The position numbers were made by a program, and so were the translations under genes. From a virus, in the IMG/VR virus record IMGVR_UViG_3300006735_000022, positions 20,936 to 84,935 of that record: DNA of 64,000 nucleotides; one strand, written 5' to 3'. Each line of letters starts with the position of its first letter. The first letter of the stretch is position 1. The notes below the pieces were generated by a model. That model saw nothing but the letters and a program-made list of their open reading frames with translations, was not told the origin of the DNA and searched no databases. Shown in pieces: positions 49,079-51,970 of this stretch.

Positions 49079-49528
49079 ATGGCAAAACTTCCTAACAATC
49101 CACTGATCTCCGAACTGTTCAAAGCAGTGCACGGTGCCAAGACTGTGGATAAAAAGGTTGAACTACTCGAACAATACAAACGGGATGACGTAAAGGCAAT
49201 CCTTATCTGGAACTTTGATAAGGGTATCAAGTCTGCCATCCCTGAGGGTGACGTTCCTTACAAGAGGAACGAATCACCTGCTGGTACTGATGGACACACC
49301 CGCCTGGTACATGAGTGGCGCTCACTGTATAACTTTATCCGTGGTGGTAACAATAAGATCTCTCAGATGCGTCGGGAGACCCTGCTGATTCAACTGTTGG
49401 AGTCACTCCATGCTGATGAAGCAGAGATCATTACCCTGGTCAAGGATAAGGAACTTCAGCAGAAGTATCGCATCACTCGTAGTGTTGTAGAAAAAGCATA
49501 CCCTGAGATTCACTGGCGTGACAAGTGA
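49079..49528 (+). CDS. conserved T4-like hypothetical protein
   Basis: LIWNFD..IKSAIPEGDVPY...RRETLLIQLLESLH. Confidence 0.75.
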   Translation: MAKLPNNPLISELFKAVHGAKTVDKKVELLEQYKRDDVKAILIWNFDKGIKSAIPEGDVPYKRNESPAGTDGHTRLVHEWRSLYNFIRGGNNKISQMRRETLLIQLLESLHADEAEIITLVKDKELQQKYRITRSVVEKAYPEIHWRDK

Positions 49529-50637
49529 AGTTCCTCATTGATCTAACAGATCATTGTAACTCCAAGTGTCCTTTGTGTGCTAGGCACAAGACATCCTACA
49601 ACGATGAGGTTGCGGTGCTTGCACCTGATCCATCCATGAACCTGTCAAAAATTTCACTGCAACAGTGGAAGACATGGTTTCCAAAAGAGACCCTTGAGAA
49701 GACAGAGTTGATCTACTTCCAAGGGTCTTTTGGTGAGCCCACATTATGTGATGATCTGCTTGAGATATATGCCTACACTCTGAAATCTAATCCCAACATT
49801 GTCTTCCAGATGAGTACCAATGGTGGCACTCGTGACGATGCATTCTGGGGAAGACTTGGTGCTCTCATGGGAGCATCACACAAGGATAGTTTTCTCATAT
49901 TTTCTATTGATGGACTAGAAGATACTCTGCAGCAGTACCGTGTCGGTGTGGACTACAAGAAGGTAATGCAGAGTGCTAAAGCATTCATCAAGGCAGGTGG
50001 TCCTGCTGTGTGGAGAATGCTAGTCTTCAAACACAACCAACATCAGATAAAAAGATGTAAGACTCTGAGTAAGTTGTGGAGGTTCAAAGATTTTCAACAC
50101 ACTCGTGTCAATGATATGTATGATGCTAGTGGTCGCGGCGATGGTAAGTTTACATATACCTACAGAAATAAACTACACACCCTGCAGGTAGCAGATGATC
50201 CCAACCATGTGTACCGTCCAGACCCTGTAGCAGAGGACTCAGAGGTCGTCTGTCGCTATGGGCATACCAAAGGCAGTCCTGGTCAACTGAGGATCGATAG
50301 TAGGGGTGTGGTCCATGCCTGTTGCTTCCACCAGTCACGTCTCAGGTTCTTCTACCCTGGATATTATATTGACAACAACCCTGATGCTCCTGCAGAGTTC
50401 CGTGACATCAACAACCCAAACAAAGGAGTGGGTGCGGAGTACATGCAACGTGTCTTCTGGGACAATGTGATCCCGTTGATTGAGGATCAAGGTGGCATCA
50501 AAACCATATCACTAGAGCATCATTCATTGCATGATGTATTACAGACTCCCTTTTTCCAGCACACTCTGGTAGAATCATGGAGTAGCAGACCCCACATTTG
50601 TGCTGACTACTGTGGAAAGAAAAGATGTATCAACTGA
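49525..50637 (+). CDS. radical SAM protein with C-terminal SPASM/twitch-like Cys domain
   Basis: CNSKCPLC, GEPT, STNG, FSIDG, C...ACC...CADYC. Confidence 0.85.
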   Translation: MKFLIDLTDHCNSKCPLCARHKTSYNDEVAVLAPDPSMNLSKISLQQWKTWFPKETLEKTELIYFQGSFGEPTLCDDLLEIYAYTLKSNPNIVFQMSTNGGTRDDAFWGRLGALMGASHKDSFLIFSIDGLEDTLQQYRVGVDYKKVMQSAKAFIKAGGPAVWRMLVFKHNQHQIKRCKTLSKLWRFKDFQHTRVNDMYDASGRGDGKFTYTYRNKLHTLQVADDPNHVYRPDPVAEDSEVVCRYGHTKGSPGQLRIDSRGVVHACCFHQSRLRFFYPGYYIDNNPDAPAEFRDINNPNKGVGAEYMQRVFWDNVIPLIEDQGGIKTISLEHHSLHDVLQTPFFQHTLVESWSSRPHICADYCGKKRCIN

Positions 50638-50671
50638 TACACTTTTATAATCCTACATAATATGGTATACT
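50627..50671 (+). promoter_or_regulatory. NtcA box plus extended -10
   Basis: GTA-TCAACTGA-TAC (GTA-N8-TAC, within the palindrome TGTATCA-ac-TGATACA) and TG-G-TATACT at 50663-50671. Confidence 0.6.
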
Positions 50672-50679
50672 AATACCTA

Positions 50680-50907
50680 CGTTCATCCAGAGCAATCTGG
50701 ACGCAAGTAAGTCGCGGAACGGAGCGTTCATCCCATGTTAGTAGAATCACTTCTATATGTCTCAGTAGCTTGTCAACAAGCCGAAGGCATTGTCCTTAGG
50801 ATGAGAGCAAACGAGAAACTCTCCGATGCTATCAAAGTTGAACTAGTAGAGACCATGAAGGAGGCAACTCCTGAATGTCCATGGGACGCAAACGACTAAA
50901 GGAACGG
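50680..50907 (+). ncRNA. tandem glutamine-riboswitch-like element (glnA/Downstream-peptide type)
   Basis: Two units of CGTTCA-stem-CGCAA...GAACG; unit 1 stem TCCAGA-GCAA-TCTGGA; unit 2 stem TCCCATG/CATGGGA; AGTCG/CGACT cross-pairing; upstream of a DUF4278 gene. Confidence 0.7.
50735..50899 (+). CDS. 54-aa ORF nested in riboswitch unit 2 (not in ORF track)
   Basis: MLVESLLYVSVACQQAEGIVLRMRANEKLSDAIKVELVETMKEATPECPWDAND. Confidence 0.55.
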   Translation: MLVESLLYVSVACQQAEGIVLRMRANEKLSDAIKVELVETMKEATPECPWDAND

Positions 50908-50940
50908 ACCTAAAAATCCAACTACTTTAGGAGTAAACTT

Positions 50941-51108
50941 ATGAACACCCTAAATCTGATTCGGAAGCAGATCCAAAAGGCATCTGCTGTTCACGACGCA
51001 CAGATTACTCACACTGCATACCGTGGTGTAGAGTATGACACACGTTGTGTAGAATCCAAAGAGACCCACGGTACTTTCTGCTATCGTGGTAAGACCTACG
51101 CTAAGTAG
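50941..51108 (+). CDS. DUF4278 'downstream peptide' protein (55 aa, not in ORF track)
   Basis: AGGAG SD; two YRG motifs (AYRGVEY, CYRGKTY). Confidence 0.75.
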   Translation: MNTLNLIRKQIQKASAVHDAQITHTAYRGVEYDTRCVESKETHGTFCYRGKTYAK

Positions 51109-51127
51109 GATTTACTCAACTCTATGG

Positions 51128-51167
51128 GGAGGGAAGGTTTGACACCTTCCCTTTTTTGTTTTATACT
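51128..51167 (+). terminator. terminator overlapping a sigma70 promoter
   Basis: AGGGAAGGT-ttgac-ACCTTCCCT-TTTTT hairpin; TTGACA(51139)-N17-TATACT(51162). Confidence 0.75.
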
Positions 51168-51173
51168 ATGCTT

Positions 51174-51326
51174 ATGGAACGAGACAAACTCAAAATAATC
51201 GTTTCCGATCTGGAAATGTTGCTCAGTGCTCTCAAAGCTGAGGTCTATTCGGACGTAGCATCTTACCGCTTCGACGAATGTGAACCTGTGGAACTTGACT
51301 ACGACGAAACTTACGAAGGTCCATGA
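51174..51326 (+). CDS. conserved small hypothetical protein (50 aa, not in ORF track)
   Basis: MERDKLKIIVSDLEMLLSALKAEVYSDV; ATGA-coupled to thyX. Confidence 0.65.
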   Translation: MERDKLKIIVSDLEMLLSALKAEVYSDVASYRFDECEPVELDYDETYEGP

Positions 51327-51970
51327 CTGTAAAACTTATCAGCATCACACCTGATTCTGAGCAGACGATGGCATACATTGCTCGCGTGAGCAATCCTGCT
51401 AATCAGGAGAACGAAAAGTATTCTGGTCTGCTAAAGTATTGCATCAAGCACAACCATTGGAGTGTGTTTGAGCAGGCAACAATGACCCTGGAGATCTCTA
51501 CGACCAGGGCAATCGCAGCTCAAATCCTGAGACATAGATCGTTCACATTCCAAGAGTTTTCTCAGAGATATGCTGACACAAAACTGCTGAAGGATAACAT
51601 CCCTCTGCCCAAGTTGCGGCGACAAGATACTAAGAACAGACAGAATAGTATTGATGACCTAGACCCTGAGGTTGTTGATAGATTGGAACGACAGATGCAG
51701 ACGTTGTTCTCATCTTCACAAGCACTGTACAATCAAATGATTGATGTTGGTGTGGCAAAGGAGTGTGCAAGAATGGTGCTCCCACTCTGTGTTCCCACAA
51801 AAATCTACATGACAGGCTCATGTAGGTCATGGATCCATTATATTGATCTGAGGTCTGCCCACGGCACTCAGAAGGAACACATGGATATTGCTGAGGCATG
51901 TAAGAATATCTTTATCGAACAGTTCCCTGCAGTGAGTGAGGCACTTGAATGGGTAGAATCTGCGGACTAA
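51323..51970 (+). CDS. thyX: flavin-dependent thymidylate synthase
   Basis: HWSVFE, QILRHRSFTFQEFSQRY, ARMVLP. Confidence 0.95.
   Translation: MTVKLISITPDSEQTMAYIARVSNPANQENEKYSGLLKYCIKHNHWSVFEQATMTLEISTTRAIAAQILRHRSFTFQEFSQRYADTKLLKDNIPLPKLRRQDTKNRQNSIDDLDPEVVDRLERQMQTLFSSSQALYNQMIDVGVAKECARMVLPLCVPTKIYMTGSCRSWIHYIDLRSAHGTQKEHMDIAEACKNIFIEQFPAVSEALEWVESAD

Follow-up and report, generated by a model that had tools for sequence, protein, structure and literature searches.

The viral DNA analysed here, a 64,000-nt stretch of IMG/VR record IMGVR_UViG_3300006735_000022 that we call the window, carries what we consider rather likely to be a glutamine riboswitch built as one aptamer inside another, with a protein gene lodged in the inner core. 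Glutamine would hide the start codon of this nested gene, and the outer core would turn on the gene that follows. The first-pass annotation had described a split aptamer whose closing stem encloses a whole gene, and this central part of its description has held: a conserved glutamine-aptamer core surrounds an ORF which, judged by its open frame, the purifying selection acting on it and its family membership, is a real protein-coding gene.

The split element occurs in hundreds of sequenced cyanomyophages, whose hosts are the ocean's main primary producers, and it is invisible at Rfam thresholds because the gene splits the aptamer. Its organization indicates that a complete gene can be accommodated in an aptamer hairpin and, on the reading favoured here, that two cores can nest and permute around one common helix. 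Such a layout would set translation against ligand sensing on one and the same mRNA.

Genomic context and parts of the element

The source of the window is a T4-like cyanomyophage, and its relatives are Kyanoviridae isolates. The element belongs to a compact unit (Table 1) located between the end of a radical-SAM ORF (50637) and an intrinsic terminator (51126–51156); a thyX-like ORF is found in the window at 51323–51970. PhotoRC-II RNA (RF01717; 41081–41177, 61.8 bits) is the sole Rfam family above its gathering threshold in the window, and no second split aptamer was found elsewhere in it. The ORF directly 5' of the unit (49525–50637, 370 aa) carries the radical-SAM domain PF04055 (37.3 bits). 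Its position is not conserved in the isolates compared, which have other upstream neighbours there; those of S-H9-2 include a gene for an S-adenosylmethionine decarboxylase proenzyme.

A transcript from the predicted sigma-70-like promoter would begin a few bases from the 5' end of the aptamer, and a TATAAT-like box is also kept at an equal distance from the aptamer in relatives. An inverted repeat, GGTAT-ACTA-ATACC (50664–50677), surrounds the -10-like box immediately 5' of the aptamer and recurs at this place in loci L007, L008, L026, L059, L081, L111 and L113. Its arms vary among relatives yet remain complementary (AGGTCTAT/ATAGACCT, GTGTTA/TAACAC and TGCATATG/CATATGCA). The repeat may represent a promoter-in-stem-loop cassette, and we take it to resemble the PeSL elements of T4.

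At the other end, the terminator-like hairpin would close a transcription unit of ~480 nt. The loop of this hairpin carries TTGACA, with TATACT 17 nt further on (region 51126–51167, promoter match 11/12), and the terminator after the IF17-like gene overlaps this next promoter, which is immediately 5' of ORF 51156–51326 (phrog_878). About 15% of relatives have an extra element of ~35–40 nt between the riboswitch and the next Shine–Dalgarno sequence, after the last GGAACGG (L010, L025, L028, L033, L043, L071, L074, L076, L078, L082, L087, L098, L099, L102, L111 and L122). It takes the form AACGGATCC-hairpin-GAGAAGGTTAA or CTCGGATCACCC-GCAA-GGGTTAAAGGAG, and an Rfam scan of it in one locus, L111, gave no match beyond the glutamine models.

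The pairing strands of the element are lettered in the order a, CGTTC(1); c, AGTCG; d, GAACG(1); e, CGTTC(2); g, CGACT; and h, GAACG(2). CGTTC(2) lies at 50725–50729 within CGTTCA-TCCCATG (50725–50737), and the 3' half, CATGGGA-CGCAAA-CGACT-AAAG-GAACGG, occupies 50880–50907. The AAAG linker of the window is GAAG in most relatives.

Table 1. Coordinates of the features of the unit in the window and the evidence for each
Feature	Position	Strand	Evidence
Promoter, sigma-70-like (TTTATA-16-TATACT, with TG)	50644–50671	+	Sequence match; predicted
CGTTC(1), strand a, 5' strand of outer P1	50680–50684	+	Invariant in 80 and 58 relatives
Outer hairpin P2, TCCAGA-GCAA-TCTGGA	50686–50701	+	All three counted pairs covary
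Joiner CGCAAGTA, core strand and 5' half of loop-E-like motif	50702–50709	+	Invariant; matches RF01739 consensus CGGAAGUA
AGTCG, strand c, 5' strand of shared P3	50710–50714	+	Partner 50893–50897, covariation
GAACG-GAG-CGTTC, strands d and e, local hairpin read as inner-core P1'	50717–50729	+	d–e covariation
TCCCATG, 5' arm of inner hairpin P2', with nested start codon (50735–50737)	50731–50737	+	Covariation; stem in minimum-energy fold
Nested ORF, 54 codons, phrog_504 small protein with Cys13 and Cys48	50735–50899	+	Family match, selection, fold prediction
CATGGGA, 3' arm of P2'	50880–50886	+	Covariation; minimum-energy fold
Joiner CGCAAA of inner core, codons (GA)C GCA AA(C)	50887–50892	+	GAC and GCA third positions invariant, n=83
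CGACT, strand g, 3' strand of shared P3; its last base opens the stop codon TAA (50897–50899)	50893–50897	+	Covariation
AAAG linker and GAACG(2), strand h (50902–50906), 3' strand of outer P1	50898–50906	+	Invariant in relatives; RF01739 consensus GAAGGAACG
CCTAAA...TTTAGG hairpin over AGGAG Shine–Dalgarno (50929–50933) of downstream gene	50909–50933	+	Fold
Downstream ORF, 55 codons, phrog_545, IF17-like, DUF4278-like	50941–51108	+	Profile matches, two YRG motifs
Intrinsic-terminator-like hairpin	51126–51156	+	Sequence; predicted

Occurrence among phages

A search of IMG/VR for exact matches to the junction yielded 120 loci, and the whole arrangement, with complete inserts, is present in 113 distinct viral contigs. 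In L111, another locus, a plain short hairpin replaces the insert. The arrangement exceeds chance by a wide margin: one copy of the 3'-half pattern is present in the window, where 0.01 would be expected. In a collection of phage isolates 373 records match positions 50677–50910, and at least 80% of the element is covered in 262 of them. Five divergent isolates were aligned: both halves are invariant, indels in the ORF are multiples of three, and the nested ORF is annotated in all five as a CDS encoding a hypothetical protein. A second sample was drawn by a peptide pattern internal to the ORF, and consequently blind to the RNA, which yielded 564 relatives; both halves are present in all 59 distinct loci obtained from the best 80 of these.

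A search of 200 picocyanobacterial genomes revealed neither phrog_504 nor the phage-type 3' half. The host picocyanobacteria sampled carry singlet type-1 aptamers that have a P3 hairpin of their own and a P1 of the form CGUUG/CAACG. Of the 120 matches to a 17-mer listed for genome contigs, nearly all are chance matches in unrelated bacteria, and the three true ones are phage contigs binned into MAGs. Among these, G001:C1 (194 kb) and G002 are whole T4-like cyanophage contigs with the Gp23 capsid gene, placed in public 'Synechococcus' and other MAGs, where such contigs could pass for host copies of the element.

Marine metatranscriptome contigs contain relatives only, in nested and ORF-less forms, and are uninformative on transcription, ends and strand. 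A spliced or ORF-less form of the window locus was considered and discarded; the apparent skips belong to other loci, in which a short hairpin puts 21–22 other letters between the halves, and are not joints.

The nested gene

The arms TCCCATG and CATGGGA, with 142 nt between them, were found to the base as first annotated. The ATG in the 5' arm does open a 54-codon ORF (50735–50899), and its end, W-D-A-N-D-stop (TGG GAC GCA AAC GAC TAA), is written in the sequence of the 3' arm, of the CGCAAA joiner and of CGACT. The loop keeps this frame in relatives, where 112 of the 113 distinct inserts reach the 3' half in frame. In 108 the frame that begins with the arm ATG continues as far as the TAA or TGA within CGACTRA; of the remaining five, four meet a TAG in the 3' arm and one ends 15 nt earlier.

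Codon entropy within the ORF follows H2<H1<H3, i.e. the variation has a period of three. The pN/pS ratio is below one, as expected of the gene first annotated, and is clearly low in frame only (0.48; the two other frames give 0.79 and 1.71); in 99.7% of pairs pN is the smaller of the two rates. The in-frame value points to purifying selection on the nested ORF. In the overlap with the RNA element, TGG-GAC-GCA, the third positions are invariant in 83 sequences (entropy zero), which indicates an extra constraint imposed by the RNA.

The encoded protein is phage-specific; it is a member of phrog_504 (E 1.4e-24) and matches no Pfam family. AlphaFold2 predicts a helical hairpin (pLDDT 85.7); a fold search with the protein gave nothing at E ≤ 0.001, only generic helical hairpins, none of the solved structures being specifically similar, and an ESM Atlas search gave only unnamed viral clusters. 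The hydrophobic N-terminus and the two cysteines noticed at first are present, and, the RNA-encoded tail apart, no residues other than Cys13 and Cys48 are invariant. All nested families, in whichever hairpin they are found, have a hydrophobic N-terminus and a pair of cysteines 35–36 residues apart.

The first hairpin (P2) also encloses an ORF, of ~66 codons, in 36 of 126 related loci. This second nested family (~66 aa, consensus MLSLLLALTLAHH..PYGWHMSCERFLQ..C; L010, L012, L014, L022, L043 and 29 other loci) has nearly no 5' leader, with the AUG directly after CGTTCATCYY, and its stop codon is inside the 3' arm of the hairpin. A weak homology connects the two main nested families (hhalign 69%, E 4e-5) and suggests that an aptamer-plus-gene module was duplicated. 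A GGAG preceding the nested AUG was considered as the Shine–Dalgarno sequence of the ORF in the window and rejected, since it is not conserved in loci sampled independently of the junction.

RNA pairing and covariation

Pairing was evaluated on 80 sequences with 500 shuffles and slid controls. The proposed helices are paired in 95.1% of cells, with two-sided changes in nine pairs. This level was not attained in any of the 500 shuffles, and slid controls gave 31–54%. The stem across the ORF, P2', covaries, as the first-pass annotation had anticipated: its fourth pair is CG57/UA17/UG3/AU2. The conserved part of this closing stem is the inner 4–5 bp only, and the pairs that involve U and G of the AUG are formed in about 48% of relatives; the minimum-energy fold of the window retains the 7-bp closing stem (z = -2.95).

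The complementarity of CGACT (50893–50897) to AGTCG (50710–50714), also recognized at first, is accompanied in relatives by compensatory changes. Two pairs of this helix, P3, are distributed as GC76/AU4 and GC78/AU1/GU1, and explicit variants are AGTCA/TGACT, AATCG/CGATT and AGACT/AGTCT. In the outer P2 all three counted pairs covary (UA/AU/CG/GC; CG/UA). Where the first hairpin encloses an ORF, changes in the stop codon of that ORF, which is part of the 3' arm, are matched in the 5' arm (TCTCATG/CATGAGA, TCTTATG/CATAAGA and TCCTATG/CATAGGA). Double-nested relatives have arms that match perfectly across each ORF; local pairing between the 3' arm of one hairpin and the 5' arm of the next was rejected there, as it places GAGA or AAGA opposite TCCC.

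Rfam recognizes only the contiguous first part of the element in the window, as Glutamine-II (RF01704, 25.8 bits) and as Glutamine (RF01739, 24.0 bits), both below the gathering thresholds of 33 and 35 bits, respectively. The split part is undetected by Rfam. The RF01739 score in the window is that of the first part; the model cannot span the 178-nt insert.

Probable topology: an aptamer inside an aptamer

The outer core would be a three-way junction of type 1 (glnA-type), with P1 formed by 50680–84/50902–06, P2 by 50686–50701 and P3 by 50710–14/50893–97. This P3 would close over a second, circularly permuted glutamine core. In the inner core, P1' would be the local hairpin 50717–29 capped by a GAG loop, P2' (50731–37/50880–86) would wrap the gene, and P3 would be common to both cores.

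The conserved core sequence of type 1, CGUUCA / GGACG(G/C)AAGUA / GAAGGAACG, is present in the outer core (50680–50709 and 50898–50906), and the loop-E-like halves AAGTA and GAAG flank P3 on opposite sides, as in a single type-1 junction. The strands of the outer P1 never vary and are consequently without covariation, and P2 and P3 covary. The inner core has CGCAAA and CG instead of the type-1 loop-E-like joiners CGCAAGTA and GAAG, and for this reason the binding of glutamine by the inner core is an assumption. The loop of P1' is GAG, GAGC, GAAC or GTTC in relatives.

The first-pass annotation had read units 1 and 2 as aptamers placed side by side, each with its own P1. An aptamer within an aptamer is favoured instead, because strands d and e compensate each other, because RF01739 takes a–h as P1 in L111 and because the minimum-energy fold of L111 is nested. 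Among 58 relatives sampled by protein, d and e are changed jointly to CAACG/CGTTG in 22–23, with CGTTC of strand a and GAACG of strand h unchanged. The outermost d–e pair is GC in 35 of the 58 and CG in 22; for e–h, 35 relatives have CG and 23 have a mismatch. The whole of the ORF-less L111 is read by RF01739 as one type-1 aptamer at 46.4 bits (threshold 35), with CGTTC(1)/GAACG(2) as P1 and AGU[41 nt]ACU as P3, followed by GAAGGAACG; RF01704 gives it 28.1 bits, below 33. The minimum-energy fold of L111 is nested and free of pseudoknots (-27.0 kcal/mol), and its fold in cis without the linking helix has -17.4 kcal/mol. Aptamers in an independent tandem would each have a closing helix of their own; here AGTCG/CGACT is a common helix and covariation favours swapped P1 partners.

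The pairing scheme in cis, in which a–d and e–h each close their own P1 and AGTCG/CGACT is a pseudoknot linking the two units, appears to us unlikely, though it deserves serious attention. Unit 1 alone is recognized by the Rfam glutamine models (24–26 bits), GAACG(1) precedes CGTTC(2) in the order of transcription, which would let unit 1 fold first, and the minimum-energy fold of the window, in which pseudoknots are impossible, draws unit 1's own P1. A comparable pseudoknot topology is also found in glutamine-II riboswitches (PMC6698751). However, both cis pairs lose their closing pair in the 22–23 of 58 relatives in which d–e is compensated, the cis unit scores ~25 bits against 46.4 for the outer reading in L111, and the position of AAGTA and GAAG on opposite sides of the common helix is that of a single type-1 junction. 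The cis and nested pairings may also alternate, and both schemes could do so in a working switch.

The covariation that bears on topology is that of a single pair, the sides of which are 8 nt apart, and because of this proximity both sides may travel jointly by recombination. On a tree of the ORF the two d–e states are interspersed, with at least six forced changes. This distribution fits an exchange of junction modules as well as it fits repeated compensation.

Proposed regulation

The gene downstream encodes a protein with two YRG motifs that belongs to phrog_545 (E 2e-35). Its initial description as a DUF4278 gene agrees with the proteins of relatives, of which six out of nine exceed the cut-off for this domain (26–31.5 bits), and the window protein itself falls slightly below, at 21.7 bits against the cut-off of 25.3. 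The element is found in the leader of a gene of the DUF4278/IF17 type. DUF4278 marks IF17, the glutamine-synthetase inactivating factor, which is under the control of glutamine ON-switches in cyanobacteria (PMC6212724).

In both known classes glutamine binding stabilises a CGUUC/GAACG helix of the P1 type (PMC6698751). In the element from the window, a helix of the P1' type directly precedes the nested AUG, itself in P2', so that glutamine would be expected to shut off the nested gene. High glutamine would bury the nested initiation region and keep this gene off, and the outer core would activate the IF17-like gene, by homology with the gifB and DUF4278 switches of cyanobacteria (PMC6212724). 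The phage would consequently make the nested small protein at low host glutamine and the IF17-like protein at high. A switch between the nested ORF and the DUF4278-type gene, as first suggested, is a plausible proposal. A ribosome starting at 50735 or terminating at 50897 would have to unwind P1', P2', P3 and the outer P1, and nested translation and a folded sensor would in this way be mutually exclusive.

We advance more tentatively, as a possibility that falls short of likely, a wider model in which ligand-binding domains closed around coding sequences are gated by ribosomes, the two coupled cores sense glutamine only on untranslated mRNA, and the two-Cys protein and the IF17-like protein are made reciprocally. 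If true, cyanophages would directly control host nitrogen assimilation, and the element would provide the first genes nested in metabolite-sensing aptamers and the first circularly permuted core of a natural riboswitch. The two small phage proteins, one of them IF17-like, probably act on the control of host glutamine synthetase during infection.

The same RNA could follow the opposite logic, with glutamine switching on the nested gene as well and both genes being co-expressed by translational coupling. The first core would then free the nested start during transcription, and ribosomes ending at 50897–99 would open the downstream hairpin. All glutamine riboswitches tested so far are ON-switches (PMC6212724), the nested stop codon is separated by 41 nt from the start codon that follows and by about 10 nt from the CCTAAA arm of the Shine–Dalgarno hairpin, termination there could couple both genes positively, and the three-gene arrays of some relatives look polycistronic. 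Against this, the nested start and the spacer upstream of it are within helices that the ligand should stabilise, and the Shine–Dalgarno hairpin is not conserved across relatives. Folds of 107 relatives revealed no consistent sequestration of the Shine–Dalgarno sequence of the downstream gene, whether the last GAACG was left free or not. We regard co-expression as rather improbable.

That the nested ORF serves as a regulatory leader only, with the act of translation mattering and the peptide being functionless, is very hard to sustain: the ORF is short and translation at its position would disrupt the RNA fold regardless of the product, but the amino acid sequence is under purifying selection, the two cysteines are invariant and equally spaced (35–36 residues) in all families, the predicted fold is confident and the nested families of the two hairpins are remotely homologous. 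We give equally little credence to the half-aptamers being relics or mobile junction cassettes, with an ORF that landed in a former aptamer and a conservation due to coding, translation signals or recombination sites: the junction module does change its associations when set against the ORF tree, one slot is taken by several ORF families that look unrelated and promoter-containing inverted repeats flank the unit, but the third codon positions are frozen in the overlap, the non-coding AAGGAACGG 3' of the stop codon is invariant, the arms covary across the ORF, stop-codon variants included, and all conserved glutamine-aptamer core nucleotides are retained in both cores.

Comparison with known systems

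Riboswitches are generally regarded as rare among phages, and we know of no coding sequence inside any described glutamine aptamer. Glutamine aptamers of cyanophages have been mentioned in passing (PMC5473149, PMC9964418, PMC9004378), and a survey of 2017 reported two glutamine aptamers only in cyanophage genomes (PMC5473149). The literature searched, outside which stands Ames & Breaker (2011, RNA Biol 8:82), holds no description of a gene inside an aptamer hairpin, of a helix common to two cores or of a permuted core.

The type 1 glutamine riboswitch (glnA RNA motif, RF01739; e.g. the leader of Synechocystis gifB/IF17; PMC6212724; PMC2864571) has in common with the phage element the core CGUUCA...GGACGCAAGUA...GAAGGAACG, the three-way junction P1/P2/P3 and the site 5' of a DUF4278/IF17-like gene, and L111 passes its Rfam threshold. 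The phage P3, however, is not a local hairpin and closes over about 180 nt with the second core and the gene, and Rfam misses the element of the window.

The type 2 riboswitch (Downstream-peptide motif, RF01704; PMC6698751) has the same ligand-site sequences as the phage element and shows that the core tolerates another strand topology. The inner joiner of the phage, CGCAAACGAC, resembles its CGCAGUUCGA, and type 2 precedes short ORFs in marine picocyanobacteria. Type 2 is nevertheless a contiguous pseudoknot of ~60 nt placed 5' of the ORF, whereas the phage core is permuted, has a helix in common with another core and wraps the ORF. The phage element is not a contiguous pseudoknot reaching 33 bits with this model (25.8 bits in the window, 28.1 in L111).

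A coding sequence combined with a functional RNA fold has parallels elsewhere. Homing-endonuclease genes sit in the loops of group I introns. The intron ORFs and the dual-function RNAs (SgrS/SgrT, RNAIII/hld; PMC12612679) illustrate, as an analogy only, that a coding sequence is tolerated together with a functional fold. Those RNAs, in contrast to the phage element, are ribozymes or base-pairing sRNAs and not metabolite sensors, and their start and stop codons are not part of the closing helix of a ligand domain.

Among tandem riboswitches 157 glutamine doublets have been catalogued, classed as pseudo-cooperative and treated as independent serial units (PMC9481103). These doublets and the tandem glycine riboswitch resemble the phage element in having two cores for the same ligand on one leader. 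Unlike the cores of the doublets, those of the phage are nested, with one common helix, and would be physically coupled, and one or both enclose genes. The tandem glycine riboswitch is in this respect closer in spirit to the phage layout than the independent doublets are.
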